Origin: Alphaproteobacteria bacterium
GTDB taxonomy: Bacteria > Pseudomonadota > Alphaproteobacteria > Caulobacterales > Parvularculaceae
DNA: 64,000 nt
Reading direction: 5' to 3'
Assembly: GCA_030433215.1 (NCBI GenBank)
Contig: JAUIMC010000009.1
Location: 62,849-126,848 of the forward strand
Shown one piece after another: positions 27,102 through 60,018 of this stretch (the first letter of the stretch is position 1; each line of letters starts with the position of its first letter). Below the pieces are notes generated by a model. That model searched no databases, had not been told where the DNA came from, and saw only the letters and a program-made list of their open reading frames with translations. The position numbers and the translations under genes were made by a program.

Positions 27102-29621
27102 ATGAGACATATTCCGGGGACAGCATCATTGCGTCTTTCTCGCGCTTCTCTGCTGGGCGCGACGGCGCTTGGCGCTGCGGCGTTTTTCACGGCGCCGGCC
27201 ATGGCGCAGGATGACGATGTCGCCGACGGCGCGCAGGACGTCATCGTCGTCACCGCGCAGTTGCGCGAGCAAAGACTCGATGACATTCCGCTTTCGATTT
27301 CGGCGGTCAGCGGTGATCTGCTCGAAGCCCGCAGCCAGACAAGCCTGCCTGAAATCACGCACCAGTTGCCGAACCTGCTGCTGCAGCAGAACCCGTCAGG
27401 CAGCGGCAACTCCATGCGGGCCTTTATCCGCGGCGTCGGCCAGTCCGACCGCAGTCCGTCCGTCGAGCCCGGCGTCGGCATTTATATCGACGATGTTTAT
27501 TTCGGCACGGTCACGGCCTCGGCTTTCGACCTTATCGACCTCGACCGCATCGAGGTGCTGCGCGGCCCGCAAGGCACGCTGGCCGGCATGAACTCCCAGG
27601 GCGGCGCCATCAAGCTCTATTCGCGCAAGCCCGAAGGCGAGGGCGGCTTCGTCTCCATCACCGCCGGCACCATGGGCCGCCGCGACGTCACGGCGAGCGC
27701 GGACTTCACGGTTGTTGAAGATCTGGCCTTCGCCCGCATCACCGGCATCACCCGCAACAAGGACGGGCATGTCACGCTTTACAACTACGCCTGCCTCAAT
27801 CCGGACGATCCGGACGTCATCTCCGGCGCGATCCCGGGGCTGATTTCGAGCGGCGACTGCAAAAGCGGCGAGCTCGGCAATCAGGAAATGTACGCCGTGC
27901 GCGGCGCGCTTCGCCTGACGCCGGGCGACGGCCGGCTCGAAGTCAACATTATCGGCGATTACACCAAGGACGATTCCAACACCCAGGCTTCCGTCCTTAT
28001 CGCTTCGGGCGAGTCCGCTACCGTCGGCAATGAAAGCGGCTATCTTGATCGCTCAGGTTTCAGCATTCCTTATCAGGGCGTTGCTTATGACGACCGTTTC
28101 GTGCCTTACGGCCAGTTCCGCCGGTCGGATTCGGTGCTGAACGATCCTTATGCGTCCTATGCCAACTTCTACGATCCGGGCGTGACCTATGAAGCCATCA
28201 GCCCGCAGGTGGGCCCTCCGTCTTCTGTTATGGCAGGCGAGTCGAATGGCCCGTTCATCGCAATCAACGGCTCCCGGGTCGAGGCTTGGGGTATTTCCGG
28301 CACGATCGATTACGAACTCAGCGAGAATCTCGAGCTGAAATCGATCACCGGCTACCGTTCCTACACGTCCGAAAGCGGCAACGACAACGACAACTCGCCC
28401 GTCGTCTACATTCAGACGTCAGACTGGTATGAACACGAGCAGTTCAGTCAGGAAGTTCGCCTCAATGGCAGCCTGTTCGAAGACACAGTGTTCTTCACGG
28501 TGGGCGGCATCTACTATGACGCCAGCACGCGTCCGCTGTCGCGCATCCACACGCCGTTCTCCGGCTTCGGCCCGGCGGACCGGCCGACCTTCTCGTTCCT
28601 CAATGACGATACGTCGGACATGACGGTTTACGCCGGCTTCGCCAACGTGGCGTGGGACATCACCGATGCGCTCACCGTCGAAGGCGGCGTCCGCGTCACG
28701 GACGAGACCAAGGACTACACCTTCGGGCGTCTCAATCCGGACGGGCGCAGCGACTACCTGCCGCTCAGCAACCCGTTGAACCAGCTCACCGGCTTTACGG
28801 ACACCTATGCGGAGACGATCACCGACTATCGCGCGGTCGCTTCCTATAATTTCAGCCCTGATCTGATGGCGTATTTCCAGTTCGCCACGGGTCACAAAGC
28901 CGGCGGCATCTCGCCGCGTCCCTATAACGTGTTCCAGATCCGTCCTTTCGGGTCGGAAAAACTGCAGTCTTACGAAGTCGGCTTCAAAGCCGCTGCGCTT
29001 GACAGCAGGGTCCGCATCAACGCCGCGGCCTTTTATATGAACTATAAGGGCTATCAGGGCATTCCCGATTTCTGTATCGACGAGAATGGCGATCGGGTCG
29101 ACATGAACCCCCGCGGGCTTTGCGGCCAGTATCTGAACCTTGCCGACGCGACGGTGCAGGGTTTCGAACTGGAAGCCTTCCTTGAGCCGGTCGATAATCT
29201 GAACATCGACGCCATGCTCAGCTTGACCGATTTCGAATTCGGCGAGCCGACCTATGACACGACGTCTGTCGTCGAAGGCGCGGACCGTCCGGGCATCGGC
29301 GAGTGGAAGTGGAGCATCGGCGCTCAGTACATGTTCGATCTCGGCAATTCCGGCACGATCACGCCGCGCGTCGACGTGTCGTACATTCCGGAATATTGCG
29401 GCAACTTCGCCTGCGACCCGAATGCGTTCGTGGAGAGCTACACGCTCGCCAACGCCCGCATCACCTATCGCAGCGCGGACGAGAAATGGTCCGTGGCGCT
29501 TCAGGCCACGAACCTCACCGACGACTACTACTTCCTGAACAAGTTCACGAACGGGTTCTACGCCACCGGCCAGCCGGGCCGGCCGCGCGAATTCGCAGTG
29601 ACGGTTCGCCGCAACTTCTAA
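27102..29621 (+). CDS. TonB-dependent receptor
   Basis: AGGGAGG RBS before ATG 27102; signal peptide; DVIVVTAQLR TonB box; DRIEVLRGPQGTLAG; C-terminal GRPREFAVTVRRNF. Confidence 0.95.
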   Translation: MRHIPGTASLRLSRASLLGATALGAAAFFTAPAMAQDDDVADGAQDVIVVTAQLREQRLDDIPLSISAVSGDLLEARSQTSLPEITHQLPNLLLQQNPSGSGNSMRAFIRGVGQSDRSPSVEPGVGIYIDDVYFGTVTASAFDLIDLDRIEVLRGPQGTLAGMNSQGGAIKLYSRKPEGEGGFVSITAGTMGRRDVTASADFTVVEDLAFARITGITRNKDGHVTLYNYACLNPDDPDVISGAIPGLISSGDCKSGELGNQEMYAVRGALRLTPGDGRLEVNIIGDYTKDDSNTQASVLIASGESATVGNESGYLDRSGFSIPYQGVAYDDRFVPYGQFRRSDSVLNDPYASYANFYDPGVTYEAISPQVGPPSSVMAGESNGPFIAINGSRVEAWGISGTIDYELSENLELKSITGYRSYTSESGNDNDNSPVVYIQTSDWYEHEQFSQEVRLNGSLFEDTVFFTVGGIYYDASTRPLSRIHTPFSGFGPADRPTFSFLNDDTSDMTVYAGFANVAWDITDALTVEGGVRVTDETKDYTFGRLNPDGRSDYLPLSNPLNQLTGFTDTYAETITDYRAVASYNFSPDLMAYFQFATGHKAGGISPRPYNVFQIRPFGSEKLQSYEVGFKAAALDSRVRINAAAFYMNYKGYQGIPDFCIDENGDRVDMNPRGLCGQYLNLADATVQGFELEAFLEPVDNLNIDAMLSLTDFEFGEPTYDTTSVVEGADRPGIGEWKWSIGAQYMFDLGNSGTITPRVDVSYIPEYCGNFACDPNAFVESYTLANARITYRSADEKWSVALQATNLTDDYYFLNKFTNGFYATGQPGRPREFAVTVRRNF

Positions 29622-29640
29622 CTTGCGGAAAACGCACGCG

Positions 29641-29671
29641 GCGGGAGAGGTCTTGCACGACCTCATCCCGC
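29641..29671 (+). terminator. Intergenic hairpin (terminator or mRNA-stabilising stem)
   Basis: GCGGGA-GAGGTC-TTGCAC-GACCTC-A-TCCCGC after the TBDR stop; no strong U tract. Confidence 0.4.
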
Positions 29672-29780
29672 CGCGCCTTACTCGACCCACGATAATTTAA
29701 AGACTCCCGTCTGGCCGCATGCGGCAAACCCCGCGTTATCCATAAGTCGGCGGACAGGGCGCAGTTTCGGGAGAAGACGC

Positions 29781-30887
29781 ATGAAGATGGACCGTCGCAC
29801 CTTGCTGGGAGCGGCTTCCGCCAGCGCCGCTGCAGGCGTTCTTGGCGGGGCGGGTTCCGCCGCCGGGGCCGCGCCGAAGGACCAGATCCGCATCGGCGTC
29901 GAAGAAGCCTTCTCAACCCAGGAACACATGAAAGCGATGCGCGATTTTGTCGACGCGCATCCGGAAGTGACGCGCTTCGATTACAAATTGTGGCGCATGA
30001 TCACCTCGAACCTGAAGGCGGACACGCCGCGCAGGCTGCTCGACTTAGCCGATATGCGTCTGAAGGAAATGGACGAGTATGGCGTGACCATGCATGTCCT
30101 TTCGCTGACCTCGCCCGGCGTGCAGATGCTCGATCCGGATGTGGCGGTGGGCGTCGCGCAAAGCGCCAATGACGAACTCGCCGAAGTGATCGCCCGTCAC
30201 CCCACGCGCTTTGGCGGTCTTGCGACCATAGCCCCGCAGGAGCCGGAAAAGGCGGCGTCGGAGATCGAACGCGCCAAGACGAAGCTGAAGCTCAACGGCG
30301 TCGTCATCAATTCCCACACCAACAACGAATATCTCGATAATCAGAAATTCTGGCCGATCCTCGAGGCTGCCGAGGCGATGGACATGCCGATCTATATCCA
30401 TCCGCGCACGCCTTCGGACCAGATGCGCGCGCCCTTCGACGACTACAATATGGGCAGCGCCTTCTGGGGCTACGGCATGGAGACGTCGACCCATTTCGTG
30501 CGCCTGATGATGAGCGGCGCCTTTGACCGGTTCCCCAAGCTGACGACCGTCCTTGGCCATATGGGCGAGGCCGTGCATTTCTGGATCTGGCGTCTCGATT
30601 ATATGAGCGCGCCGGGCGTTGCGCGCGGGGAAACGCCGATCAAGCTTCTGCCCAGCGAATATCTGCGCCGCAATCTGCGCATCACCACCAGCGGACAGGA
30701 AAACCCGGCGGCGCTTCGTTACTCCATCGACGTCCTGGGCGCGTGGAACGTGATGTGGGCGATCGACTATCCCTATCAGGAAATGCCCTCCGCGGTGCGC
30801 TTCATGGACAATGCGCCGCTGACGCAGGAAGAGCGCGACGCGGTCTACTGGAAGAACGCCGCCCGCACTTTCAACATCGACCTTTAG
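29781..30887 (+). CDS. ligW: Tat-signal LigW-like non-oxidative aromatic acid decarboxylase (amidohydrolase_2)
   Basis: DRRTLLG Tat signal; IGVEEAF, LSLTSPGVQM, INSHTN, IYIHPR, FWGYGMETST, LGHMGEA..FWIWRLDY, NVMWAIDYPYQ, all matching 5-carboxyvanillate decarboxylase LigW as recalled. Confidence 0.82.
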   Translation: MKMDRRTLLGAASASAAAGVLGGAGSAAGAAPKDQIRIGVEEAFSTQEHMKAMRDFVDAHPEVTRFDYKLWRMITSNLKADTPRRLLDLADMRLKEMDEYGVTMHVLSLTSPGVQMLDPDVAVGVAQSANDELAEVIARHPTRFGGLATIAPQEPEKAASEIERAKTKLKLNGVVINSHTNNEYLDNQKFWPILEAAEAMDMPIYIHPRTPSDQMRAPFDDYNMGSAFWGYGMETSTHFVRLMMSGAFDRFPKLTTVLGHMGEAVHFWIWRLDYMSAPGVARGETPIKLLPSEYLRRNLRITTSGQENPAALRYSIDVLGAWNVMWAIDYPYQEMPSAVRFMDNAPLTQEERDAVYWKNAARTFNIDL

Positions 30888-30923
30888 AACCCGCGCCAGG
30901 CAGAGCGCAAAGGAGAAGCCGTC

Positions 30924-32051: not shown

Positions 32052-32066
32052 GCGCGCTCCACCTAC

Positions 32067-32111
32067 GCCGCGGGTCCCTTCTACCTCCCTTCCCGGGACC
32101 CGCGGCTTTTT
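32067..32111 (+). terminator. Rho-independent terminator
   Basis: GCCGCGGGTCCC / GGGACCCGCGGC 12-bp stem followed by T5. Confidence 0.7.
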
Positions 32112-32123
32112 CCTGAAAGCATG

Positions 32124-32157
32124 AAAAAAGCCGGCGCTGTTAGCGCGCCGGCTTTTT
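32124..32157. terminator. Bidirectional terminator between convergent genes
   Basis: A6-GCCGGCGC..GCGCCGGC-T5. Confidence 0.75.
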
Positions 32158-32179
32158 GTGTTCGGTCTTTGTTGAAGCC

Positions 32180-34086: not shown

Positions 34087-34284
34087 TATAATCCTCCCGA
34101 TTATCAGCGCGTCAGGCTGGCAGCGCTTTGGCGCCGTGTCATTGCCTATAGTGAAGCGCCGGCTTTGCTCACATGGAATCGCGCCGCCGGGCGCGCATGC
34201 GCATGCAAAATGGGCGTTCGCTTACGGGATTGCGGGGCCCTTCGCGGCGCGCGATAGTTCGCATCTGCAATATCGGGATGTCTT

Positions 34285-35761: not shown

Positions 35762-36196
35762 CTAGAGGCCGGCGGGCAGGTCCGCCGTCACTTCACGCCG
35801 CTTGAAGCGCCAGCCCTCCGGCGTGGGGACGATAATGTCGCTATAGCTTCCGGCGATCGCGATCCGGAGCCCGGTGTCGCTCTCGCCCCCGTTTTCACGC
35901 TGTTCGATGAGCATCCAGCGCGACCAGGCGGTCGCGTCCCGGCCGCGCATGGTGATCGCGATGCTGCCGAAAATATGGACGCAAGGCGGCGTCGCCGCGA
36001 ATTCGCGCTCGACGAAAGCGGCCAGCGCCGCGCGTCCGGCGATGACCCCGTAGCGCTCGCCGCCGATCCATTCGCCGTCCGGCGCGAACAGAGCGGCCCA
36101 GCCGGGCGCGTCCTTCAGATCAAGCAGGCGGCCATATTCAGCCATCAGGCGCCGGATCGCTTCGGCATGCTCCGCATAGGGAATTTCCTCGGACAT
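35762..36196 (-). CDS. SnoaL_4/NTF2-like protein (short type, no signal peptide)
   Basis: EAIRRLMAEYGRLLD, CVHIFG, GSYSDIIVPTPEGWRF. Confidence 0.8.
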   Translation of the reverse strand: MSEEIPYAEHAEAIRRLMAEYGRLLDLKDAPGWAALFAPDGEWIGGERYGVIAGRAALAAFVEREFAATPPCVHIFGSIAITMRGRDATAWSRWMLIEQRENGGESDTGLRIAIAGSYSDIIVPTPEGWRFKRREVTADLPAGL

Positions 36197-36387: not shown

Positions 36388-37377
36388 ATGAGAAAATTCC
36401 TCAACAACCCCGCCGACGCCGTCGATGAAAGCCTGCGCGGTTTTGCGCGTTGCCATGCCGATCTCGTGGAGCTCGTGGAGCGGCCGCGTTACGTCAAACG
36501 TCAGCGCCTGACGCAAGGCAAGACGGCGATTATCTCCGGCGGCGGATCGGGTCATGACCCGCTTCACGCCGGGCTCGTAGGGCGCGGCATGCTCGACGCG
36601 GCTGTGCCGGGCGAAATTTTCTCCTCGCCGTCAGTAGAACAGATCCTGGCGGCGGCGGAAGCGGTCGGCGGCGAGGCGGGGCTTTTGTGCCTCATCAAGA
36701 ATTATTCCGGCGACATCATGAATTTCGAACTTGCGATGGAGATGTTCGACCGGCCCCATGCGAGCGTCATTATCGAAGACGATATCGGCGCGGCGGGCGG
36801 CGATGACACGGTTGGCCGGCGCGGCGTCGCCGGCACGGTCGTGGTCGAAAAGCTCGCCGGGGCCGCCGCTGAACGCGGCGAGGGGCTCGAGGCCTGCGCC
36901 GAGATCGCGCGCCGGGCTGCGGCGGCGACGCGCACTATCGGCGTGGCGCTCGGCGGCTGCCAGGTTCCGTCCGCGGACAAGGCCAACCTTGAGCTTGCGC
37001 CCGGCGAGATGGAAATCGGCATCGGCATTCATGGCGAGCCCGGGCGGCGGCGCGCGCCCATCGCGCCGGCGAATGAGATCGTCGAGGAGCTTATCGAGGC
37101 GCTCATCGCCGATTTTTCTCCGTCTCCTGACGATCCGCTGCTGCTGTTCGTCAACGGGCTCGGCGGAACCCCGCCCATGGAAACCTATATCATCTACGAT
37201 GCGGCGGCGCGCATGCTGGCGGCGCGGGGACTGACCGTCGCCCGCTCGCTCGTTGCGCCGCTGGTGACTTCGCTCGAAATGCCGGGGGCGTCGATTACGC
37301 TGACGAAGATGGAGGACGGGTTCCTCGATCTCTGGGACGATCCGGTGGTGACGCCGGGACTGAGATGGGGCGCATGA
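36388..37377 (+). CDS. dhaK: PEP-dependent dihydroxyacetone kinase subunit K
   Basis: SGGGSGHDPLHAG, GEIFSSP, KNYSGDIMNF, GRRGVAG, EIGIGIHGEPG, TSLEMPGASIT. Confidence 0.92.
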   Translation: MRKFLNNPADAVDESLRGFARCHADLVELVERPRYVKRQRLTQGKTAIISGGGSGHDPLHAGLVGRGMLDAAVPGEIFSSPSVEQILAAAEAVGGEAGLLCLIKNYSGDIMNFELAMEMFDRPHASVIIEDDIGAAGGDDTVGRRGVAGTVVVEKLAGAAAERGEGLEACAEIARRAAAATRTIGVALGGCQVPSADKANLELAPGEMEIGIGIHGEPGRRRAPIAPANEIVEELIEALIADFSPSPDDPLLLFVNGLGGTPPMETYIIYDAAARMLAARGLTVARSLVAPLVTSLEMPGASITLTKMEDGFLDLWDDPVVTPGLRWGA

Positions 37378-38027
37378 GCCTCGCGCAATCCCATAATCCC
37401 GCCGAGAATACCGGCGCCGCGCTCGAGCTGCTCGACGTGCTTTGCACTCTGTTGCTTGGCGCCGAAGACGAGCTCAACGGGCTCGACCGCGCTATCGGCG
37501 ACGGCGACCATGGCGGCAATCTCGCCCGCGCGTCGCGCAGCCTGTCAGAGCTTCGTCCCGAACTCGCTGAGCTTTCCATGGGCGAGGCCGTGACGCGCGC
37601 CGGCCGCGCGGTGGTGATGAGCGTCGGCGGCGCTTCGGGCCCGCTTTACGGAACCCTGCTGATGGAAATGGGCAAGGCGCTGCCTGACGAGCCGGGGCCT
37701 GGCGACTGGGCCGCGGCTTTTGCGGCGGGCGTCGACGGCGTCGCCCGGCGCGGCCGCTCCGCTGAGGGCGACAAGACCATGCTCGATGTGCTCGCGCCGG
37801 CGTCGCGCGCGCTTTCGGAAGAAGCGTCCGCAGATTTGCACGAAGCGCTCGCGGCGATGCGCGCGGCGGCGGAAGACGGCTTTGAAACATCGCGCGGCTT
37901 GCGCGCGAAACGCGGACGCGCCGCCTATGTGGGCGAGCGGTCCGTCGGACATGACGATCCCGGAGCGCGGTCGGCGCTGTTGTGCGTCGGTGCGGTTGCA
38001 GATTTTTTAGGGGAGAACAAGGGATGA
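37374..38027 (+). CDS. dhaL: Dihydroxyacetone kinase ADP-binding subunit L
   Basis: LDRAIGDGDHGGN, VGGASGPLYG, GDKTMLDV, RGRAAYVGERSVGHDDPGA; ATGA overlap with dhaK. Confidence 0.92.
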   Translation: MSLAQSHNPAENTGAALELLDVLCTLLLGAEDELNGLDRAIGDGDHGGNLARASRSLSELRPELAELSMGEAVTRAGRAVVMSVGGASGPLYGTLLMEMGKALPDEPGPGDWAAAFAAGVDGVARRGRSAEGDKTMLDVLAPASRALSEEASADLHEALAAMRAAAEDGFETSRGLRAKRGRAAYVGERSVGHDDPGARSALLCVGAVADFLGENKG

Positions 38028-38410
38028 GCGTGGCGCTTCTCATCGTTTCGCATTCCGCCGACGTCGCGCGCGGCACGGCGGATATGGCCCGGCAGATGGC
38101 CGGCGCCGATTTGTCCATCGCCTGGACCGGCGGCAATCCCGATGGCGGTCTCGGCACGAGCCTCGCCGCGATTACCGAACAGCTTGAAGCCGTCTGGCGG
38201 GAGGAAGGCGTCGCCATTCTGGTCGATGTCGGCGGCGCGGAGATGAATTCCGAAATGGCCATCGAACAGTTCGACAAGGCGAAAGCGAAGAAAATCCGGA
38301 TATGTCAGGCGCCGCTGGTGGAAGGCGCGATCATGGCGGCGGCGGAAGCGGCGTCCGGCGGCGGCCTCGACCAGGTGTGCCGCGCAGCAGAGGAATTTTC
38401 GCACGCGTGA
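38024..38410 (+). CDS. dhaM: DHA kinase phosphotransferase subunit (EIIA-Man-like)
   Basis: LLIVSHS (phospho-His), GG..DGGLGTS, LVDVGGA, APLVEGA. Confidence 0.9.
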   Translation: MSVALLIVSHSADVARGTADMARQMAGADLSIAWTGGNPDGGLGTSLAAITEQLEAVWREEGVAILVDVGGAEMNSEMAIEQFDKAKAKKIRICQAPLVEGAIMAAAEAASGGGLDQVCRAAEEFSHA

Positions 38411-38412
38411 CC

Positions 38413-38730
38413 ATGTCGAGTTCTCAGCCTTGCGATGCCGAATGGAGGCAAGCCACCCTGACCGTCGTCGGGGCGCATGGTCTTCATGCGCGTCCCGCGA
38501 TCCGGTTTTCCCGCGTCGCGAGGGGGTATTCCGCGCGCATTCAGATCTGCGTCGCGGACGATGCGCGCTGGGTTGACGCCAAGAGCGTGGCGAAGGTGAT
38601 GGGCCTTCAGGTCGAGTCGGGCAGGAAAATTCTATTGCGTGCGGCCGGGGACGACGCCGAGGCGGCGCTGGCGGGCCTGCGCCAACTGATCGAGACGGAC
38701 CTCGCCGGCGAAGGCGAAGATGGCGGATGA
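38413..38730 (+). CDS. ptsH: HPr phosphocarrier
   Basis: GLHARPA (phospho-His), VDAKS, LRAAGDDAEAAL. Confidence 0.9.
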   Translation: MSSSQPCDAEWRQATLTVVGAHGLHARPAIRFSRVARGYSARIQICVADDARWVDAKSVAKVMGLQVESGRKILLRAAGDDAEAALAGLRQLIETDLAGEGEDGG

Positions 38731-40274
38731 CTCGGCTCCCGGGAAAGGTCGCGTCGCAGGGCGTCGCCTCCGGAACGCTGCGGCGCGACGCTGTGGCCGC
38801 GCGGAGCGCAGGCAGGCCTGCTGACAGCGTGGCAGGCGCCGTTATCGAAGCGGCATGGCAGTTGCGCGCGCTGCAAGCCGCCGCGACTAGTCTGGGTTCG
38901 GACATTCTCGAATTTCAACTCGCCCTGCTTGAGGATGACGGGCTTGTCCTCGAAATGGTCCAGAAGGGCGCCGCGCATGGCGATGCCGCGCGCGCCATCG
39001 CCGAGGTTCTGGAAGAGCAGATCGCATCCTATCGCGCTGCGGCGGATGCGCGGTTTGCGGCGCGCGCGGCCGACCTTGAGGATCTCAAAAGCCGTCTTCT
39101 CGGCGCGCTGAAAGGCGCGGCGGCGCCGGCAAGGGCGCTCCCTGCGGGCACGATCCTCATTGCAGAAGAGATGACGCCGAGCCGCTTTCTTGAGCTCGAC
39201 CGCGCGAAAATCGCCGGAATCGTTGATCAGAAGGGCAGCGAGACGAGCCATGTCGCCTTGCTGGCGCGCGCGGAAGGCGTGCCTATGCTGGTCGCCGCCG
39301 GGCCTGTCGCGGCGGAATGGGAATCGCGTCCCGCCCTGCTCGATGCGGCGCACGGGGAGCTTGTCCTCGATCCCGATGCGGCGCTCATCCGCGATCGCGC
39401 CGGTCAGGCTTCTGCACAGGATGTTCCGTCATCGGAAGGCGAAGGACCGGCGGTTCTGTCCGATGGCGAAACGGTGCGGGTCAATCTCACCGTTAATGCG
39501 CTCGCGAGCCTAGACGAGGCACCGCCCGAATGGTTCGACGGCATCGGTCTCGTCAGGACCGAGCTCTTGATTACCGATGCGGAAGAAGTTCTGAACGCCG
39601 GGCGTCAGGCGAGCCTCTACCGGCCGCTGTTCGACTGGGCGCGGGAAAAGCCGGTGACCATCCGCCTGCTCGATGGCGGCGGCGACAAACAGGTGCCCGG
39701 CTATGCGCCGCCTCCGGGCGGCGGCGGTTTTCTCGGCGTGCGCGGCGCACGGCTTTTGATGCGGCGCGGCGATGTCCTGCGCGCGCAGCTCGCGGCGATC
39801 CTTGACGCCGCGGAAGGCCGGCCGGTGCGAATCATGGCGCCCATGATTACCTTGCCGGAGGAGATGCGGTTCTTCAGAACGGAGCTTGACCGCGCCATAG
39901 ACGCGTCCGGGGCGGACCGGGTGCAGGCGGCGCTGGGCATGATGGTGGAAACCCCCGCCGCGGCGCTCGACATCGATCGTTTCGATGCGGATTTCTTCGC
40001 TCTCGGCACGAATGATCTCGCGCAATATGTCCTGGCCGCCTCGCGCGACAGCGAGGCTTTGCCGCTTGGCGGGGAAATCCCGCCGGCGGTGCTTGAGCTT
40101 GTTCGGCGGGTCGTCGAACATGGCAGGAATAAAGGGCTTGCGGTGTCCGTTTGCGGCGATGTCGCGGCGTCTGAGGAAAGCCTTGGGCGGTTTCTCGCCT
40201 GCGGGGTGCGCTCTTTCAGCATCCCTTCGCGGTTTGCGCCCCGCTTCAAGCAGTATATCAGGACAGGGCTGTGA
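38727..40274 (+). CDS. ptsI: PTS Enzyme I (PEP-protein phosphotransferase)
   Basis: GSETSHVALLARA (phospho-His), GIGLVRTE, RLLDGGGDK, LGVRGARL, GMMVETP, GTNDLAQY, VCGD. Confidence 0.9.
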   Translation: MTRLPGKVASQGVASGTLRRDAVAARSAGRPADSVAGAVIEAAWQLRALQAAATSLGSDILEFQLALLEDDGLVLEMVQKGAAHGDAARAIAEVLEEQIASYRAAADARFAARAADLEDLKSRLLGALKGAAAPARALPAGTILIAEEMTPSRFLELDRAKIAGIVDQKGSETSHVALLARAEGVPMLVAAGPVAAEWESRPALLDAAHGELVLDPDAALIRDRAGQASAQDVPSSEGEGPAVLSDGETVRVNLTVNALASLDEAPPEWFDGIGLVRTELLITDAEEVLNAGRQASLYRPLFDWAREKPVTIRLLDGGGDKQVPGYAPPPGGGGFLGVRGARLLMRRGDVLRAQLAAILDAAEGRPVRIMAPMITLPEEMRFFRTELDRAIDASGADRVQAALGMMVETPAAALDIDRFDADFFALGTNDLAQYVLAASRDSEALPLGGEIPPAVLELVRRVVEHGRNKGLAVSVCGDVAASEESLGRFLACGVRSFSIPSRFAPRFKQYIRTGL

Positions 40275-40338: not shown

Positions 40339-40755
40339 TTGCAGGGCGAAGCAAAACAGGAGCTGATCCGGGCTTATAAACTGCTGCTCAGGGAAGCCTT
40401 GGAATCACGGCCTTCCGGCATTCGCTTGCGGATCGCCGACACGATCGGAAAGAACAAGAGCTTCATCTCCCAGATCACCAATCCCAAATACAAGACCCCG
40501 CTGCCCGAAAAATATGTCGAGCCGATTCTCGACGTCATCCACCTGACGCCGGCCGAGCGGGATCGTTTCCTTGACGTCTATCGCCGGGCGCATCCGCGCG
40601 CGCGCCCCCAGCCGCCGGAAAAGGCGGGGCCGGCGAGCACGCGCACCTTGCATATTGAGCTGCCTTCGCTCGGCTCCAAGGCGCTCGATCAGAAAGTCGA
40701 CGCGCTGATCACCGACCTGGCGCGCCAGCTCAACGAGCTGATCGAACAGCGCTGA
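40339..40755 (+). CDS. Uncharacterised XRE/HTH-like protein following the dha-PTS operon
   Basis: TTG start after GAGGAG; RPSGIRLRIADTIGKNKSFISQITNP resembles an XRE helix-turn-helix. Confidence 0.65.
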   Translation: MQGEAKQELIRAYKLLLREALESRPSGIRLRIADTIGKNKSFISQITNPKYKTPLPEKYVEPILDVIHLTPAERDRFLDVYRRAHPRARPQPPEKAGPASTRTLHIELPSLGSKALDQKVDALITDLARQLNELIEQR

Positions 40756-45324: not shown

Positions 45325-45339
45325 GAGGAGGAACGGCTC

Positions 45340-46221
45340 ATGCAGGTCAATGCAACAACGGCGAGCCTGGAGCGGGCGGCGCCGCGCTCGAAAAGGATCG
45401 AAGGCCTCGAGCCTTCTCGCCGGTCAAGCCTTGAACTCGGCGCCGCGCGGATCGAACGGGTGCGCGGGCTCGGCCGCCTCTATGAAGGCGCCGATGCTGA
45501 GTGCCGGCTTCTGTTTCAGACGGCCGGCGCCGCGGCGCTGACCTCGGACAGGGAGGCGGAGGCGTTTGACCTCGAGGCGGGTCACTGGGTGATCCAGCCC
45601 TTCTCCATGCTGAACATCGAACGCGGCCCCGGGTGCGAGCAATATGCGGTCGCATTCCCGGCCGGGATGCTCTCGCGCACGCTCATGGCCCATCTGCAAG
45701 GCGTTGCCGTTGCGCCTTTGCCCATCGGCGGCGCTGCGCAATTATGTCTGGAGCTCGGACGGTCCTGTCTTTCGCAGAACGAGCCGGTGAGCGCCGCCGT
45801 CGCCGAGACGCTGGGCGAGTCGCTGATTGAACTCGCCAAGCTCGCCATCATCGAACAGTCGGGCGTCAAGCGCGGCGAGACCATGCGCGAGACCGCGCGG
45901 GCGCGCATTCAGGGCTTCATTCACCGCAATTTGTCGGACCCCGATCTCACCATCGACCGGATCGCCAAGCGGATGCAGTGCACGAAACGCTATCTGCACA
46001 AGGTTTTCAGCAAGGAAGGCGAGACGCTGAACCAGTATATCTGGGCCAAGCGCCTCGATCTGTGCCGCGCGCGGCTGTCGCGCCCGGACCTTTCCGACAA
46101 GTCGATTACGGAAATCGCGTTTTCCTGCGGCTTCAGCAACGCTGCGCATTTCAGCCGCAGTTTCAGGGCCCGCTTTGGCGAGGCGCCGCGCGTCTATCGC
46201 CGCGCGGCCCTCGATAGCTAA
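45340..46221 (+). CDS. AraC family regulator (FeaR-like)
   Basis: NLSDPDLTIDRIAKRMQCTKRYLHKVF...SITEIAFSCGFSNAAHFSRSFRARFG. Confidence 0.9.
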   Translation: MQVNATTASLERAAPRSKRIEGLEPSRRSSLELGAARIERVRGLGRLYEGADAECRLLFQTAGAAALTSDREAEAFDLEAGHWVIQPFSMLNIERGPGCEQYAVAFPAGMLSRTLMAHLQGVAVAPLPIGGAAQLCLELGRSCLSQNEPVSAAVAETLGESLIELAKLAIIEQSGVKRGETMRETARARIQGFIHRNLSDPDLTIDRIAKRMQCTKRYLHKVFSKEGETLNQYIWAKRLDLCRARLSRPDLSDKSITEIAFSCGFSNAAHFSRSFRARFGEAPRVYRRAALDS

Positions 46222-50420: not shown

Positions 50421-51383
50421 TTGCCGGAACTGGAAAAAGGCTGGGGTGAGTTGCCCAACCTGTTGGTCGATTTAAGCGAAGTAGAACAGGGAAAACGCGC
50501 GCTCTCGTGGGACAGCGCCGTGCGCACCGCTTTTCCGAGTCTTTCTGTGGAGCTGTCGGACCCCACGGAATCCTGCGGCACCATCAACTGCACCAAAATG
50601 GGCGCCGGCGAATTCTTCGAAATCGATTCGGCCCCGGTCGACGTCACCCATCACGCCGGCGCGGCGAAAGAAAAAAGCCCGCCGCATCTGTCTTTGATGA
50701 TCCAGTCCAAAGGCTCCATCTGCGTCAGCCAGGCCGGCCAGAGCTCCATCCTGCGCGAAGGCGATCTGTGCGTTATCGACGAAGCGCGCAGCTTCCGGAT
50801 GATCGGCGAAGGCAGCAGCAAGATCCTGTTTCTGCGCATGTCCCGCGCGGCGGCGCTCAGCCGCTATCCCACGCTTGAAAAACCCTTTGCGAGCGTCTTT
50901 CCGGGCGAAGAGCCGGGCACCCGGCTTCTGGCCGACACGCTTTTGAGTTTCGCCGCCGCGGCGGGGAGCCTCAGGGAGTTGCAGCGCAGCGCCATGATGA
51001 ATGCGGTCATACAGATGCTCGGCATGGCGGAGCCGTTTTCGCGTCTGTCGCCGGCGCCTGACTGGCGCGTCCGGCGCGCGCTCGATTACATCGAACTCAA
51101 CCTTTCGGTCCCGGGTCTCACCGCCGAAGCCGTGGCGCAGGACCAGCGGATCAGCCGCCGGCGCCTGGATCAGCTGATGCAGGAAGCGCTCGGCCATTCG
51201 ATCGCCAGCCATTTGTGGAGCCGCCGGCTTGAACAGGCCGCGGCGGATCTGCGCGACGGGCATCGCGCCGACCAGTCGATCGCCCAGATCGCTTTCGCCA
51301 ACGGGTTTGAAGACGCGGCGCATTTCACGCGCGCTTTCAAAAGGCGGTTTTCCCTCACCCCCGGGCAGTGGCGTCTTAACTGA
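50421..51383 (+). CDS. AraC family regulator (FeaR-like)
   Basis: LREGDLCVIDEARSF; RALDYIELNLSVPGLT...SIAQIAFANGFEDAAHFTRAFKRRF; divergent from the PQQ dehydrogenase. Confidence 0.88.
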   Translation: MPELEKGWGELPNLLVDLSEVEQGKRALSWDSAVRTAFPSLSVELSDPTESCGTINCTKMGAGEFFEIDSAPVDVTHHAGAAKEKSPPHLSLMIQSKGSICVSQAGQSSILREGDLCVIDEARSFRMIGEGSSKILFLRMSRAAALSRYPTLEKPFASVFPGEEPGTRLLADTLLSFAAAAGSLRELQRSAMMNAVIQMLGMAEPFSRLSPAPDWRVRRALDYIELNLSVPGLTAEAVAQDQRISRRRLDQLMQEALGHSIASHLWSRRLEQAAADLRDGHRADQSIAQIAFANGFEDAAHFTRAFKRRFSLTPGQWRLN

Positions 51384-54753: not shown

Positions 54754-54757
54754 CCCG

Positions 54758-56896
54758 ATGTTGCCTGTCATGCGTTCCGCCATGCTCGCGCTCGCCGCGT
54801 TTGCGCTCGCCGCTTGCGGCGAGAAAACGGAAGATACGGCCGATAGCCAGCCCTCCGCCGCTGGCGGTCAGGGCGCTGGCGGCGAGATCAGCGCCGGGCG
54901 GCTTGCCGGCGCGGCGAACGAGCCTGAAGTCTGGCTGAGCGACGGGCGCACCTATTCGGCGCAGCGTTACAGCCCGCTGACGGAGGTCACGGCCGAGAAT
55001 ATCGAGGAGCTCGGTCTCGCCTGGTTCGACGATTACGACACCTATCGCGGCATCGAGGCGACGCCGCTCTACGCCGACGGCGTACTCTACAATATCCTCG
55101 CCTGGAACATCACCATCGCCTATGACGCGGCGACCGGCGAACGGCTGTGGACCTTCGACCCGGAAGTGCCCCGCGAAATGGGCCGTTACGCCTGCTGCGA
55201 GCCGGTCTCGCGCGGACTTGCCTTGTGGAACGACAAGGTCGTCATCGCGACGCTCGACGGGCGCCTGATCGGGCTCGACGCAAAGACCGGCGAAGAAGTC
55301 TGGAGCACGCAGACCTTCAGCAATGAATATCCCTACACGATCACCGGCGCGCCGCGCGTCTTCGACGGCAAGGTTGTCGTCAGCCAGTCGGGCGGCGATA
55401 TGGGCGTGCGCGGCTTTGTTATCGCGCTCGACGCGGACACCGGCGAAAAACTCTGGAAGTTTTACCTGACGCCCGGCAATCCGGCGGACGGTCCCGACGG
55501 CGAAGCCTCCGATCCGATCATGGAGATGATCCGGGAAACCTGGAGCGGGGAATACTGGAAGCTCGGCGGCGGCGCCAATGCCTGGGACTCCATCGCCTAC
55601 GATCCCGAGCTCGATCTCGTTTATGTGGGCACAGGCAACGGCTCGCCCTTGTCCTGGCATTACCGCAGCGAGCGTAAAGGCGACAATCTCTTTGTCTGCT
55701 CCATCGTGGCGCTCAACGGCGATGACGGCAGCTATGCGTGGCATTATCAGATGGTCCCCGAAGAAGACTGGGACTACACCTGCACCAGCTCCATCGTCAG
55801 CGCGGAGCTGACCATCGGCGGCGAAGAGCGAAAAGTTCTGATGCAGGCGCCGAAAAACGGTTTCTACTATGTCATCGACCGCGCGACGGGCGAGCTGATT
55901 TCCGCGGAAACCTATGTGAAGGTGAATTGGGCCGAGGGGATCGATCCCGAAACGGGCCGTCCCATCATCAATCCGGACATGCACTACGACACCGATCCGG
56001 TGCTGGTCTATCCGGGCCCGGGCGGGGCGCATAACTGGTTCCCCATGGCCTATAGTCCGCGTACGCAGCTTGCGTATTTTCCGGCCTATCAGTCGGGCCG
56101 GGTCTATGCGCTCGATCCCGATTACGAGCCGAAGCCGTTTCGTTCGAACAGCGGCTGGGGCGGGTATTCCGGCGACATCCTCGAAAAGCGCATGGCGCTT
56201 CAGGCCCAGGGCGACGCCGACGAACAAGCCTGGCTGACCGCCTATGATCCGGTGAAGCAGGAAATCGCCTGGCAGGTTGAAATGCCCCGTCACGGCAATG
56301 GCGGCGTCATGGTCACGGGGTCTGACCTCGTCTTTGAAGGCACCACGCGTCAGACCTTCGCCGCTTTCGATGCGGAGACGGGCGAGGAGCTGTGGTCCTA
56401 TCCGGTGCAAAGCTCGCCGGTGGCAGGGCCCATCAGTTACATGCATGACGGCGAGCAATATGTGGCGATCAACGCCGGCTGGGGCGGCGGCGCCGCGCAG
56501 ATCGAGCGTATGTCCGGGATCGACCGTCCCCGCGCCGCCGCGCGCTTGCTGGTGTTCAAGCTCGGCGGCGAAAAGGAATTGCCGCCCCTGAAAGCGCAGG
56601 AGCCTGTGCCCGCGCCGCCGCGCCTCGCCGCGTCGGAAGCGGAAGTGAAAAGAGGCGCGCAGCTTTACGCCGAAACCTGCGCGGTCTGCCACGGCCAGCG
56701 CGCCATGGGCGGCGTTTCCGACCTGCGCCACATGACGCAGGAAACGCACGCCAAGTTCAACGAGATCGTGCTCGGCGGGCTTTATGTGGACAAGGGCATG
56801 GCGAGCTTCGCCGACATTCTGAACGAAGACCAGGCTGAAGACATTCACGCCTATCTGATTGCGCGGGCCAATGAGGATTGGGGCGCGGAAAACTGA
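54758..56896 (+). CDS. Second lipoprotein quinohemoprotein (PQQ + heme c) dehydrogenase, type II
   Basis: Lipobox LAAC; QRYSPL, ACCE, GTGNGSP, WDYTCT, APKNGFYY, CAVCH. Confidence 0.92.
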   Translation: MLPVMRSAMLALAAFALAACGEKTEDTADSQPSAAGGQGAGGEISAGRLAGAANEPEVWLSDGRTYSAQRYSPLTEVTAENIEELGLAWFDDYDTYRGIEATPLYADGVLYNILAWNITIAYDAATGERLWTFDPEVPREMGRYACCEPVSRGLALWNDKVVIATLDGRLIGLDAKTGEEVWSTQTFSNEYPYTITGAPRVFDGKVVVSQSGGDMGVRGFVIALDADTGEKLWKFYLTPGNPADGPDGEASDPIMEMIRETWSGEYWKLGGGANAWDSIAYDPELDLVYVGTGNGSPLSWHYRSERKGDNLFVCSIVALNGDDGSYAWHYQMVPEEDWDYTCTSSIVSAELTIGGEERKVLMQAPKNGFYYVIDRATGELISAETYVKVNWAEGIDPETGRPIINPDMHYDTDPVLVYPGPGGAHNWFPMAYSPRTQLAYFPAYQSGRVYALDPDYEPKPFRSNSGWGGYSGDILEKRMALQAQGDADEQAWLTAYDPVKQEIAWQVEMPRHGNGGVMVTGSDLVFEGTTRQTFAAFDAETGEELWSYPVQSSPVAGPISYMHDGEQYVAINAGWGGGAAQIERMSGIDRPRAAARLLVFKLGGEKELPPLKAQEPVPAPPRLAASEAEVKRGAQLYAETCAVCHGQRAMGGVSDLRHMTQETHAKFNEIVLGGLYVDKGMASFADILNEDQAEDIHAYLIARANEDWGAEN

Positions 56897-56942
56897 CTGC
56901 GCGGCGGACGGCCGGCGCCGTCGCCGTGAAGGAGCGACTTGC

Positions 56943-57455
56943 ATGAAACGGCTGATGTTTCCGCTGGCTGTGCTCGCCCTTGTTGCAACGGGGCTCGCCG
57001 CGCCGGCGCGCGCGCAGGAAGCGTCGCCCGCCATGCAGGAATTGCGCGACCGCACCGCCATTCATCAATTGCTGCTCGACTATGGCCGCACGCTCGACGA
57101 GCGCGAATTTGAAGCGTTCGGGAATCTTTTCACCGAAGACGGCGAATACGGTCCCGCGGGCTCCATGACGAAAGGCCCGACGGCGATCGCCGACCAGATG
57201 AGCGCTGTCTTCGACGCCAACGCCATGGGCTTTCGCGAACCCAATTTTCACGTGTTCTTCAATGAAAGCATCAGCCTTGACGGCGACCGCGCGGAAGCGA
57301 CGAGCATGTCGTTCTATGTCGTGCCGGGCGAGGACGATCTGCCGAAGATCGCGATGATGGCGGCATACAAGGACGATCTTGTCCGGGTCGGCGGTGAATG
57401 GAAGTTCCAGCGCCGTGAAGTGCGCGGGCTGTCGCGTCCGCCGGCGCGTCAATGA
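56943..57455 (+). CDS. Secreted SnoaL_4/NTF2-like protein (short type)
   Basis: GGAG RBS; Sec signal ending ARA; ELRDRTAIHQLLLDYGRTLD, NFHVFF, YKDDLVRVGGEWKF. Confidence 0.85.
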   Translation: MKRLMFPLAVLALVATGLAAPARAQEASPAMQELRDRTAIHQLLLDYGRTLDEREFEAFGNLFTEDGEYGPAGSMTKGPTAIADQMSAVFDANAMGFREPNFHVFFNESISLDGDRAEATSMSFYVVPGEDDLPKIAMMAAYKDDLVRVGGEWKFQRREVRGLSRPPARQ

Positions 57456-57522
57456 TCTGCATCAAAAACGGGAACGATGGTTGTTTTATTTTTTTGAACG
57501 GTTGAACGGTCGGGAGCGCGCC

Positions 57523-58488
57523 ATGGGGCGGAGCGGTATTTTAAGGGCAGGGCTTTTTGCGGCGGCGGCGTTGTGCGCGCCGACTGGCCATGCGCTGGAG
57601 CCCGGCGTCAGAATCATCAGCGCGCCGCCTGAAATCGAATACCCGGAAGGCGTGACGGTCGACGATCAAGGCTGGATCTATGTGTCGAGCGCGGTCGACA
57701 GCGCGGTCGCCAGAATGAACGCGCAAGGCGAAGCGGTTGAGATTCTTTCGGAAGGCGGCGTCTTGTTGCCGCCCGAGGAGCAGTTGTTTCCGGGGCTCCT
57801 CGGCAAGAAGATCGACGAGCATGGGCGCTTGTGGATCATGGGTGGGCGCAGCGGCAAGATTTTCGTTCTCGACAAAGACACTGGCGAGCTCGTCGCCGAG
57901 CACGCCGTGCCGAGCGAGAATAACGCGCTCAATGACGCCGCTATTCTCGACGACGCGGTTTACGTCACCGACACGGCGCAGCCCATTCTCTGGCGGCTTT
58001 CCAAGGACGGCGAGAAGATCGGCGCCCCGGAAGCCTGGCTCAGTTTTGACGGAACGCCGCTCCAATATGCGCCGGGCCGTAATCTGAACGGCATCGCCGC
58101 CGATGCGGACGGCAAATATCTCATCGTCATCCAGATGGACAAAGGTCTTCTCTTCCGGATCGATCTTGCGAGCAAGGACGTCACGCCCATCGATGTCGGC
58201 GGCGAGCCTGTGAGCAATGGCGACGGCCTCGTTCTTGTGGGGCAAACGCTCTATCTCGTGCGGCAGGCGGAAACGGAAGTCGTCACGCTTCGCCTGGCGC
58301 CCGATTTCACGTCGGCGGAAGTGATTTCAAGATTCAGCGATCCGGCCCTGACCTGGCCGGCGACCGCGGCCATCGCCGGCGGCGAATTGCTGGTGATGGA
58401 CACTCAGTTCAACCGCCGCGCGACCGGCGATCCGGTCAAACCTTTTTCCATCGTGGCCATTCCCCTCGAACTGCTCGGCGCGGAATGA
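57523..58488 (+). CDS. Secreted SMP-30/gluconolactonase-like propeller
   Basis: Signal peptide; YPEG, LNDAA, LNGIA, GDGL (E/N/N/D metal-ligand pattern). Confidence 0.78.
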   Translation: MGRSGILRAGLFAAAALCAPTGHALEPGVRIISAPPEIEYPEGVTVDDQGWIYVSSAVDSAVARMNAQGEAVEILSEGGVLLPPEEQLFPGLLGKKIDEHGRLWIMGGRSGKIFVLDKDTGELVAEHAVPSENNALNDAAILDDAVYVTDTAQPILWRLSKDGEKIGAPEAWLSFDGTPLQYAPGRNLNGIAADADGKYLIVIQMDKGLLFRIDLASKDVTPIDVGGEPVSNGDGLVLVGQTLYLVRQAETEVVTLRLAPDFTSAEVISRFSDPALTWPATAAIAGGELLVMDTQFNRRATGDPVKPFSIVAIPLELLGAE

Positions 58489-58545
58489 CGCGGACTAATT
58501 TTCAAACGCCCGGCGGCGAAACGAAAAAGAAGAAAGGATAAAATC

Positions 58546-60018
58546 ATGGCGCATTTTCCAGATAATCCGGGTTTCACCGGCGCTATGCGTCCTCTCCGGT
58601 TGCAGGGCGACCTTGTGGACATCGAGCTCGAAGGAGACATTCCCTCGGAGATCGACGGCGCCTTTCATCGCGTGCACCCCGACAGCCAGTTCACGCCCCG
58701 CTATGAAGACGATCAGTTCTTCAATGGCGACGGCATGGTTTCGATGTTCCGCGTCCATGACGGCAAGGTCGATTTCAAACAGCGTTACGCCCAGACGGAT
58801 AAGTGGAAGCTGGAGAACAAGGCCGGCAAGTCCCTGTTCGGCGCCTATCGCAATCATTTGACGGACGATCCGTCGGTGGAAGGCGAGATCCGCGGCACCG
58901 CCAATACTAATGTGCTGGTTCATGCCGGCAAGCTCTTCGCCATGAAGGAGGACAGCCCGCCGCTCCTCATGGACCCCAATACGCTGGAGACTTTCGGCTA
59001 TACGGATTTCGGCGGCAAGCTCGACAGCAAGACCTTCTGCGCGCATCCCAAGATCGACCCGGCGACGGGCAATATGTGTGCGTTCTCCTACATGTCCAAA
59101 GGGCCGATGACGCTCGACATGTCCTATATGGAGATTTCTCCGGAAGGCGAGCTGCTCTTCGAAGTGCCGTTCAAGAATAAATATGTCTGCATGATGCATG
59201 ATTTCGGCGTCACCGAAGACTACGCCGTCTTCAATGTCATGCCGTGCATCAGCAATATGGAGCGGCTTGAAAAGAACATGCCCTATTTCGGCTTCGATCA
59301 TTCGATGCCGGTCTGGCTTGGGGTTCTTCCGCGCAAGGCGGGCGCGACCGAGGCCGACATGCGCTGGTTCAAGGCGCCGGGCAACTGCTTCACCGGCCAT
59401 GTCATGAACGCTTTCAATGACGGCACGAAAATCCATTTCGATCTGGCCATCGCCGCGAAGAACTCCTTCCCGTTCTTCCCGGACGTCACCGGCGCGCCGT
59501 TCGATCCTATCGGCGGCATGAGCTATCTGACGCGCTGGACCGTGGACATGGCCTCGAACGCCGACACGTTCGAAAAGGTCGAGAAGATGACGGATCAGGC
59601 GGACGAATTCCCGCGCATCGACGACCGCTACGCCACGCGCCCGCATCGCCATGGCTGGATGCTGGTTTTCGATACGTCCAAACCCTATGATGGGCCGGGG
59701 GGCGCCTTCATGGCGATCACCAACAGCCTGTCGCACAAGGATCTCGCCACCGGCAAGGAAAAGACCTGGTGGGCCGGGTCCGAATGCGCTCTGCAGGAGC
59801 CGTGCTTCATTCCGAAATCGCCGGACGCGCCGGAAGGCGAGGGCTATATCGTGGCGCTCGTCGACAATCACGTCACGAATTATTCGGATCTGGCGTTCTT
59901 CGACGCGCAGCATGTGGATGAAGGCCCCATCGCCCGCGCGAAGCTGCCCTTGCGTATTCGCCAGGGCCTGCATGGCAACTGGTCGACGGCCAAACAGCTT
60001 GCGCAAGCCAATGCATAG
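58546..60018 (+). CDS. lsdA: Lignostilbene alpha,beta-dioxygenase (carotenoid oxygenase family)
   Basis: MAHFP..PGF.G..RPLR; F59, Y101 and K134 at the same numbers as recalled for LsdA; four Fe-His motifs (FCAHP, MMHDF, GHVMN, GLHGNW); no signal peptide. Confidence 0.93.

Follow-up and report, generated by a model that had tools for sequence, protein, structure and literature searches.

Positions 27102-60018 of the 64,000-nt window analysed here, a stretch of contig JAUIMC010000009.1 from an alphaproteobacterium of the family Parvularculaceae, hold an accessory, laterally shared gene island that probably serves to break down plant-derived aromatic oligomers of the lignin type, partly outside the cytoplasm. 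The fuller reading, a horizontally shared accessory island that catabolises lignin-type phenolic oligomers or dimers of plant origin in two compartments, is moderately probable in our estimate. To our knowledge, bacteria degrade lignin dimers in the cytoplasm, in part by routes that need NAD and glutathione, such as LigDFG. The candidates encoded in the island bear on how cells deal with oligomers that are unsuited to the cytoplasm because of their size or reactivity: secreted and cytoplasmic copies of a three-subunit relative of the lyase LdpA, a branch of LigW-like decarboxylases exported by the twin-arginine (Tat) pathway, a secreted double-NTF2 family (~4,100 clusters at 50% identity) paired with pyrroloquinoline quinone (PQQ) dehydrogenases, and a robust link to a triose kinase. 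Such proteins could yield new enzymes for lignin valorisation. New here are the architecture of the three paralogous subunits A, B and C, the predicted NTF2 nature of the secreted "CxxxCL" (Cx) proteins, the conservation of a core, and the peripheral status of the LsdA orthologue (LSD) and the LigW-like enzymes.

The core consists of the SnoaL_4 proteins S4, A and BC (a fusion of B and C), a major facilitator superfamily (MFS) transporter and the SnoaL_4 protein S7. Related loci were found via relatives of the BC protein and then searched by tblastn with all window proteins. BC relatives occur in seven sphingomonad genomes or metagenome-assembled genomes (MAGs), including Sphingobium nicotianae H33, and in six gammaproteobacterial MAGs; judging from the record titles, the carriers come from soil, bog, compost and dung. 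The order S4-A-BC-MFS-S7 is syntenic in ten loci (L001-L010), and L011 has it without MFS and S7. A search for syntenic clusters, which the first-pass annotation of this DNA had proposed, has thus found the core in 13 other genomes of two bacterial classes, which argues for a coherent catabolic system and against a chance neighbourhood. Further recurring pieces are Cx genes, the TonB-dependent receptor (TBDR), an orthologue of the regulator AraC2 and, often, dhaKLM. Orthologues of the TBDR (54-79%) occupy the same position in L001-L007, the secreted A-B-C set is found in L001-L004 and L007, PQQ genes in L006, L007 and L012, AraC2 orthologues in L001-L004, L006, L007 and L012, and orthologues of the short SnoaL_4 protein S3 in L001 and L003-L006. 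All 13 carrier genomes have LSD homologues, 3-13 each. Neighbours of the module in the gammaproteobacterial loci include Aldedh (L009, L013), a VanA-type Rieske O-demethylase and luciferase-like monooxygenases, and those in L011 include a true LdpA-type gene.

Within its own GTDB family (152 genomes, 13 genera), this genome is the only one with a BC orthologue, the 151 others being without the module. The island dhaK, the sole dhaK of the genome, has matches in 2 of these 152 genomes, the other one 42% identical, and orthologues of the amidase and HlyD genes at the island's flanks are missing from 50 congeners. Because module and dhaK are nearly confined to this genome within the family and the flanks are not conserved, the island is accessory and laterally shared. 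Its G+C content is 0.629 versus 0.622 for the genome. Defining the island borders by flank synteny was abandoned, as the flanks are not conserved and the region is variable.

The gene map, in window coordinates, is based on frames with high third-position G+C and on Pfam, NCBIfam and PDB searches:

27102..29621, + strand: TBDR with Sec leader (Pfam Plug and TonB_dep_Rec_b-barrel)
29781-30887, + strand: LigWa, LigW-like Amidohydro_2 protein with twin-arginine leader
30924-32051, + strand: LigWb, LigW-like Amidohydro_2 protein with twin-arginine leader
32180-33115, - strand: Cx1, secreted, predicted tandem NTF2-like; gene overlaps that of Cx2 by 4 bases
33112-34086, - strand: Cx2, secreted, predicted tandem NTF2-like
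34285-34812, + strand: S1, short SnoaL_4 lipoprotein (Pfam 4.6e-27; lipobox LAISC)
34911-35504, + strand: S2, short SnoaL_4 lipoprotein (Pfam 4.9e-31; lipobox LPAC)
35762..36196, - strand: S3, short cytoplasmic SnoaL_4 protein (Pfam 2.6e-24)
36388..40274, + strand: dhaK, dhaL, dhaM (EIIA-Man), HPr and EI (Pfam Dak1, Dak2, EIIA-man, PTS-HPr, PEP-utilizers)
40339..40755, + strand: orf138, conserved 138-aa protein without family, beside EI
40885-41400, + strand: S4, cytoplasmic core (Pfam SnoaL_4)
41393-42049, + strand: cytoplasmic subunit A (Pfam SnoaL_4)
42046-43380, + strand: cytoplasmic fused B-C (Pfam SnoaL_4; N-terminal half B, C-terminal half C)
43370-44761, + strand: AAHS-like MFS transporter (Pfam)
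44758-45324, + strand: S7, cytoplasmic core (Pfam SnoaL_4)
45340..46221, + strand: AraC-family regulator 1 (AraC1; HTH_18 and HTH_AraC)
46231-48057, - strand: Cx3, fusion of a Cx2-like and a Cx1-like half; gene overlaps that of PQQ1
48035-50278, - strand: PQQ1, quinohemoprotein dehydrogenase lipoprotein (Pfam PQQ and cytochrome c)
50421..51383, + strand: AraC-family regulator 2 (AraC2; AraC_binding_2 and HTH_18)
51523-52506, + strand: SGL1, lipoprotein propeller (weak Pfam SGL)
52503-53216, + strand: secreted subunit A (Pfam SnoaL_4, Sec leader)
53213-53953, + strand: secreted subunit B (Pfam SnoaL_4, Sec leader)
53950-54753, + strand: secreted subunit C (Pfam SnoaL_4, Sec leader)
54758-56896, + strand: PQQ2 lipoprotein (PQQ and cytochrome c)
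56943-57455, + strand: S11, SnoaL_4 protein of the secreted operon
57523-58488, + strand: SGL2 propeller (Pfam SGL)
58546-60018, + strand: LSD, cytoplasmic LsdA orthologue (RPE65 domain, no leader)

The long plus-strand run dhaK-dhaL-dhaM-HPr-EI-orf138-S4-A-BC-MFS-S7-AraC1 spans 36388-46221, and a second one, SGL1-A-B-C-PQQ2-S11-SGL2-LSD, spans 51523-60018 with overlapping stop and start codons. Scans of the region for promoters and terminators returned counts at the level of shuffled sequence and no support for operons. Eleven island genes encode exactly 12 SnoaL_4 domains, against 25 in the entire genome of 3.75 Mb; the island's predicted total of NTF2-fold domains is about 20, because the Cx proteins have this fold as well. 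Judged by eye, 16 island products carry N-terminal leaders of the Sec, Tat or lipoprotein type, and the leaders are kept in orthologues of the secreted-type proteins and missing from the cytoplasmic paralogues. All genes listed in the first-pass annotation are present in frames supported by third-position G+C. Its count of 12 SnoaL domains is exact, its estimate of about 15 exported proteins lies close to the 16 counted here, and the partly exported pathway it proposed agrees with the coexistence of secreted and cytoplasmic versions, as far as leader conservation read by eye can tell. The kind of system it described, partly exported catabolism of aromatic dimers or oligomers with LdpA-related enzymes, holds; its specific enzymology does not, and LSD and LigW move to the periphery.

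The six long SnoaL domains of the island belong to three paralogue types, A, B and C, each present once in a cytoplasmic and once in a secreted set. The known relatives LdpA (NaLdpA Saro_2805, SpLdpA SLG_12650; PDB 8abt-8abw) and PcfL (Saro_0796) are sphingomonad gamma-formaldehyde lyases of the NTF2 type, and Glu143 is the residue of LdpA that serves as acid when the C-alpha hydroxyl is lost. The best PDB matches of the long SnoaL proteins are 8abt and 8abv (1e-27 to 1e-22), with BaiE and LinA next (1e-27 for LdpA versus 1e-4 for BaiE). These two entries are NaLdpA and SpLdpA; LdpA is a homotrimer locked by a C-terminal arm, its essential residues are Tyr35, Asp40, His97, Glu143 and Tyr147, and its E143Q and E143A variants are inactive (PMC9942872). 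Aligned with the LdpA stretches from the PDB match, the six domains are 35-42% identical to LdpA, and they share with it the NTF2 fold, a long N-terminal helix and the C-terminal arm, which is kept in A, B and C alike. They also occur together with LSD genes.

The residue survey covers the window domains and the 13 related loci; PcfL is absent from its table and from the tree. In C subunits, Tyr35, Asp40, His97 and Tyr147 are always kept and the His-Asp dyad is invariant, and in B subunits these four residues are usually kept, so that most B and C subunits retain the dyad and the Tyr oxyanion hole of LdpA. Subunit A often lacks the catalytic His: His97 is replaced by R in many cytoplasmic copies and by W or F in secreted ones, and secreted A further has Phe in place of Tyr35. 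No A, B or C protein has Glu143, its position carrying G, R, A or S both in the six domains of the window and in the orthologues, and Tyr74 of LdpA is likewise missing throughout. In the maximum-likelihood (ML) tree, an LdpA-type clade (9 rows) is split from an A/B/C clade (46 rows) with 100/100 support. Within the latter, each paralogue type is monophyletic (97/83, 99/94 and 89/93 for A, B and C). As each of the three clades contains a cytoplasmic and a secreted subclade, the A-B-C triplet appears to have been duplicated as a set.

Gene fusions point to the assembly of these subunits. A, B and C form one open reading frame (ORF) of ~660-670 aa in the gammaproteobacterial MAG loci L008, L009 and L010, and a single 741-aa ORF (stop-to-stop) in the congener G084, in which His97 is kept only in the third (C) domain. 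An AlphaFold2 (AF2) model of the L009 fusion has a predicted template modelling score (pTM) of 0.85, which is supportive of an A-B-C assembly but not decisive; in the underlying alignment, MAFFT misplaced single A proteins on the B domain, leaving domain A covered by three sequences. An alternative MAFFT alignment was rejected since it put all single proteins onto the A domain. The top Foldseek matches of the fusion model are 8abv, 8abt and 8abu, with target TM-scores (TMt) of 0.70-0.72 over ~232 residues. From the A+B+C fusions, the phylogeny and the L009 model, A, B and C probably form a pseudo-trimer resembling the LdpA homotrimer, with C as the constant catalytic subunit. Unlike LdpA, this assembly would comprise three diverged paralogous subunits, one full set of which carries Sec leaders, and it would represent a clean case of evolution from a homotrimer to a heterotrimer with a degenerate subunit. 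The divergent module in which the G084 fusion lies (L020; G084:C49:1-12000) consists of a PQQ dehydrogenase, a single Cx unit and then the 741-aa three-NTF2 fusion.

The first-pass annotation had taken the long SnoaL proteins for gamma-formaldehyde lyases of the LdpA/PcfL kind that convert beta-1 and beta-5 dimers into stilbenes for cleavage by LsdA, in an expanded and partly exported sphingomonad pathway. Several features speak for this: the identity to LdpA reaches 35-42% where PcfL itself shares only 44%, most B and C subunits retain Tyr35, Asp40, His97 and Tyr147, the C-terminal arm is preserved, and both the cytoplasmic and the secreted A, as well as B, have an acidic residue one position past the Glu143 site. 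Moreover, the LsdA gene ends the secreted operon, and an LSD gene follows BC in L012. However, loss of Glu143, whose exchange inactivates LdpA (E143Q/E143A, PMC9942872), and of Tyr74 extends to all A, B, C and orthologues, and the long SnoaL proteins fall into a clade of their own (PcfL is not in the tree). Four true LdpA-type genes with all residues kept lie elsewhere in the same genome (contigs C31, C14, C24 and C30), with LSD, LigW-like and Aldedh genes next to one of them, and the lyase pathway leaves DhaKLM, the PQQ enzymes and the Cx proteins unexplained. We therefore regard it as unlikely. The chemistry of A/B/C is, judging from the sequences, related to that of the known stilbene-forming lyases, and identity with the LdpA type is not upheld; because the SnoaL proteins sit outside this type, stilbene formation by loss of formaldehyde is no more than a possible activity of the island. 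Without Glu143, the dehydration and deformylation performed by LdpA is not assured, and the A/B/C enzyme may consequently use another electron sink, for instance a carbonyl set by the PQQ dehydrogenases. It could instead catalyse elimination, retro-aldol cleavage or isomerisation.

The LSD protein is a close homologue of LsdA, as had been claimed: it scores 870 bits to LsdA (isozyme I, Sphingomonas paucimobilis TMY1009; 6ojr) with ~80% identity over the full length, matches PF03055 RPE65 at 1.6e-127, and keeps F59, Y101 and K134 as well as the four His ligands H167, H218, H285 and H476. Like LsdA it has no leader; unlike it, it is encoded at the end of an operon that otherwise specifies secreted products. 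The congeners have their LsdA orthologue (87-89%) in a different cluster, composed of a TBDR, an LdpA orthologue, an MFS transporter, a 559-aa ORF, a 209-aa ORF, a second MFS transporter and LsdA, and true LdpA-type genes thus adjoin the LsdA orthologue in G056 and G084. It therefore appears that different dimer modules recruit LsdA as a common downstream enzyme. The congener cluster may serve lignan or beta-1 dimers. It is found at L018 (G056:C1:262000-281999) and L019 (G084); by eye, its 559-aa ORF resembles an FAD-linked oxidase of the p-cresol methylhydroxylase (PCMH) kind, and an RR-type leader is present in its 209-aa ORF. A second dimer cluster of canonical appearance lies on G000 contig C31 at ~29493-40253. 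It contains an LSD gene (60% to that of the window), a leaderless LigW-like gene (42%), Aldedh, an LdpA-type gene (63% to NaLdpA, every catalytic residue kept) and another LSD gene.

Both LigW-like decarboxylases called in the first pass are Amidohydro_2 proteins with a twin-arginine leader (DRRTLLG in LigWa, HRRNLLG in LigWb). Their best PDB match is LigW (4icm) with 353 and 318 bits, respectively, and residues 41-372 of LigWb align with residues 3-334 of 4icm. They share with LigW and LigW2 (4icm, 4inf) the Amidohydro_2 fold and the conserved metal-ligand motifs (E, IHPR, DYPY, HMGE, NSHT), and differ in a ~40-aa N-terminal extension carrying the twin-arginine motif, the characterised LigW members being cytoplasmic. 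The RR leader is present in 19 of 20 metagenomic LigW-like homologues of leader-containing length (365-381 aa), the 20th (P0019) being N-terminally truncated, and absent from four homologues of ~340 aa. The extension thus appears to define a LigW-like subfamily found in many metagenomic sequences. In the library searched, no paper connects LigW with Tat or the periplasm. Orthologues of LigWa/b occur in only one of the 13 related loci (L004), and an adjacent LSD gene, 38% identical, also in only one (L012); contrary to their earlier inclusion as parts of the system, both are peripheral recruits. Where the window has its two Tat-LigW genes, L003 (4943-5959) and L001 (4995-5996) have an alpha/beta-hydrolase with a weak PETase-like match (22.9 bits, below the cut-off). 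The same two loci also have a duplicated secreted C subunit.

The three CxxxCL genes reported previously are confirmed; their NTF2 fold had been overlooked. Cx1, Cx2 and Cx3 match no Pfam or NCBIfam model and contain four Cys in each ~300-aa unit. Cx1 and Cx2 are 29% identical, and Cx3 is a fusion whose Cx2-like half is 55% identical to Cx2 and whose Cx1-like half is 33% identical to Cx1. Cx2 was modelled with AF2 from 15 homologues (predicted local distance difference test score, pLDDT, 87; pTM 0.85), and the best Foldseek matches of the model are Lsd19, MonBI/BII, iota-carbonic anhydrase and limonene epoxide hydrolase (LEH). By this model, the Cx proteins are tandem NTF2-like domains: Cx2 is predicted to form two NTF2-like cones in tandem, resembling those of Lsd19, MonBI-MonBII and LEH (Foldseek probability 1.00, per-domain TM-score ~0.55-0.6), the matched proteins having such cones in tandem or singly, and the Cx proteins would thereby resemble NTF2 enzymes that add water. 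In contrast to these enzymes, with which it shares ~10% identity, Cx2 is secreted, has two Cys pairs per unit and lacks a biosynthetic context. Leaderless Cx homologues in L009 and L011 are devoid of the N-terminal CxxxC pair. A Cx profile search returns 4,100 clusters (50% identity) at E <= 0.001 and 773 at E <= 1e-30, and the Cx proteins thus belong to a large unannotated family, often encoded beside PQQ dehydrogenases. Cx genes directly adjoin PQQ-cytochrome c dehydrogenase genes in the window, L006, L012, L020 and G000 contig C34; on the latter (30370-33305), the PQQ dehydrogenase gene lies ~6 bases from a Cx2-like gene. On G000 contig C24 (217577-220882), two short SnoaL_4 genes lie beside a fused Cx3-like gene.

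PQQ1 and PQQ2 are, as previously proposed, lipoprotein PQQ-heme dehydrogenases, each combining a propeller and cytochrome c with one CxxCH motif and a lipobox (LLAAC and ALAAC). They score 544.6 bits with TIGR03075 (cut-off 480) and 653 bits with 1kv9, and are closest to the alcohol and polyol dehydrogenases ADH IIB and IIG. They have the full domain set of these type II quinohemoprotein alcohol dehydrogenases (ADH IIB 1kv9, ADH IIG 1yiq) and differ from them in being lipoproteins and in having their genes paired with those of Cx proteins. Two propeller genes are present where two SMP-30 propellers had been called, but the family matches are weak: SGL1 reaches 21.7 bits with Pfam SGL, under the gathering score of 26.3, and SGL2 reaches 36.6 bits but no single significant stretch. 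SGL2 matches 9m58/9m59 far better than any SMP-30 structure, its best PDB match being residues 165-436, the propeller part, of these entries (E = 6.5e-49). They are deposited as "Superoxide dismutase (SodC), Cu-Zn family", and a literature search found no paper on PDB 9m58. The best family of the MFS transporter is AAHS (TIGR00895), in line with its earlier assignment, although its 236.7 bits remain below the cut-off of 418.55. The two AraC-family regulators both contain HTH_18, accompanied by HTH_AraC in AraC1 and AraC_binding_2 in AraC2.

The set dhaK, dhaL, dhaM, HPr and EI, also recognised in the first pass, has all five Pfam domain sets above cut-offs. It resembles the DhaKLM dihydroxyacetone kinase dependent on the phosphotransferase system (PTS) in its full domain set, and departs from the usual DhaKLM in that it lies within an island for aromatic catabolism and has no glycerol dehydrogenase gene close by. 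The order dhaKLM-HPr-EI-orf138 stands beside the module in L002, L005-L007 and L011 and continues just past the end of L009, and in L010 the module is accompanied by EI and orf138. The triose kinase thus travels with the island. Because dihydroxyacetone kinase is robustly present, the gene content suggests a triose as a product of the island pathway. No paper linking NTF2/SnoaL with dihydroxyacetone kinase was found in a literature search. The adjacent orf138 has no Pfam or NCBIfam match and has orthologues (47-67%) in L002, L005-L007 and L009-L011; it accompanies the EI gene in every locus with the dha-PTS set. A helix-turn-helix-like stretch is visible in it, by eye only, and orf138 may for this reason regulate the set.

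Taken together, these assignments allow a two-stage scheme for the island. The TBDR would take up the oligomer into the periplasm, where only enzymes needing no NAD, ATP, CoA or glutathione would act; we infer that the leader-bearing enzymes (PQQ/haem dehydrogenases, metal-dependent decarboxylases, NTF2 proteins without cofactor, and propellers) all belong to classes free of NAD(P), ATP, CoA and glutathione requirements, and they would therefore fit a periplasmic stage on TBDR-imported oligomers. There, the PQQ dehydrogenases would oxidise side-chain alcohols and pass the electrons to cytochrome c, the secreted A/B/C trimer, with its catalytic centre mainly in C and a degenerate A, would act with the Cx proteins in eliminations or hydrations of the acid-base, enolate or quinone-methide type, and the Tat-exported LigW-like enzymes would remove ring carboxyl groups. 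The acidic product would then enter the cytoplasm via the MFS transporter and meet the S4, A/BC and S7 set. In this genome the recruited LsdA would cleave any 4-hydroxystilbene formed to aromatic aldehydes, and a triose from the C3 side chain would be phosphorylated by DhaKLM. In its strongest form, the scheme becomes a periplasmic cleavage of lignin oligomers free of nucleotide and thiol cofactors, in which PQQ oxidation and elimination or hydration by the heterotrimeric NTF2 enzyme and Cx proteins would break inter-unit bonds, possibly beta-aryl ethers, and deliver a C3 fragment to DhaKLM. This extension is quite unlikely in our judgement; if true, it would stand as an alternative to LigDFG, the route that depends on NAD and glutathione.

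A number of points weigh against reading the island as a two-compartment system for lignin-type oligomers or dimers. Glu143 is missing from all A, B and C proteins, in the window as in the orthologues, and NTF2 enzymes act on many substrate classes. LSD and LigW fall outside the conserved core, and the LsdA orthologue of congeners lies in a different cluster together with a true LdpA. The known lignin-dimer routes yield no dihydroxyacetone, as far as we know, and the assignment of compartments depends on leader sequences judged by eye.

The island could instead serve a substrate other than lignin, for example a steroid or bile acid, an alcohol of the terpenoid or polyether type, or a synthetic polyol. 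The NTF2 proteins would then be dehydratases, isomerases or epoxide hydrolases, and the PQQ enzymes would dehydrogenate polyols to dihydroxyacetone. BaiE and LinA as next-best PDB matches, the resemblance of the Cx fold to the epoxide hydrolases Lsd19 and LEH, the proximity of the PQQ enzymes to ADH IIB/IIG and a kinase that would suit glycerol-type moieties are all compatible with this view. Nevertheless, LdpA leads the matches of the long SnoaL proteins by a wide margin, the MFS protein best matches aromatic-acid transporters, LigW-like, LSD, VanA-type and Aldedh neighbours recur, and the carrier genomes are all rich in LSD genes, which makes a non-lignin substrate very unlikely. Least probable of the readings weighed here is that the TBDR-LigW, dha-PTS, NTF2 core, PQQ-Cx and LSD modules form no single system and merely lie side by side in a variable region: flanks and the whole region are strain-specific, the dha, PQQ, LigW and LSD content varies among loci and the promoter and terminator scans at chance level provide no proof of operons, but the same combinations recur in differing orders in two bacterial classes, overlapping genes join dha-orf138-S4-A-BC-MFS-S7 and SGL1-A-B-C-PQQ2-S11-SGL2, and dhaK is essentially limited to the island within the family. 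Polyketide biosynthesis with SnoaL cyclases was rejected, as the island has no polyketide synthase and instead secreted products, importers and catabolic regulators, and so was degradation of polyvinyl alcohol or polyethylene glycol, prompted by the PQQ enzymes, since the hydrolase and CoA-ligase genes that belong to these pathways are lacking. Upstream of the island, window positions 6000-26000 have a G+C content of 0.50-0.56, compared with 0.62 for the genome.

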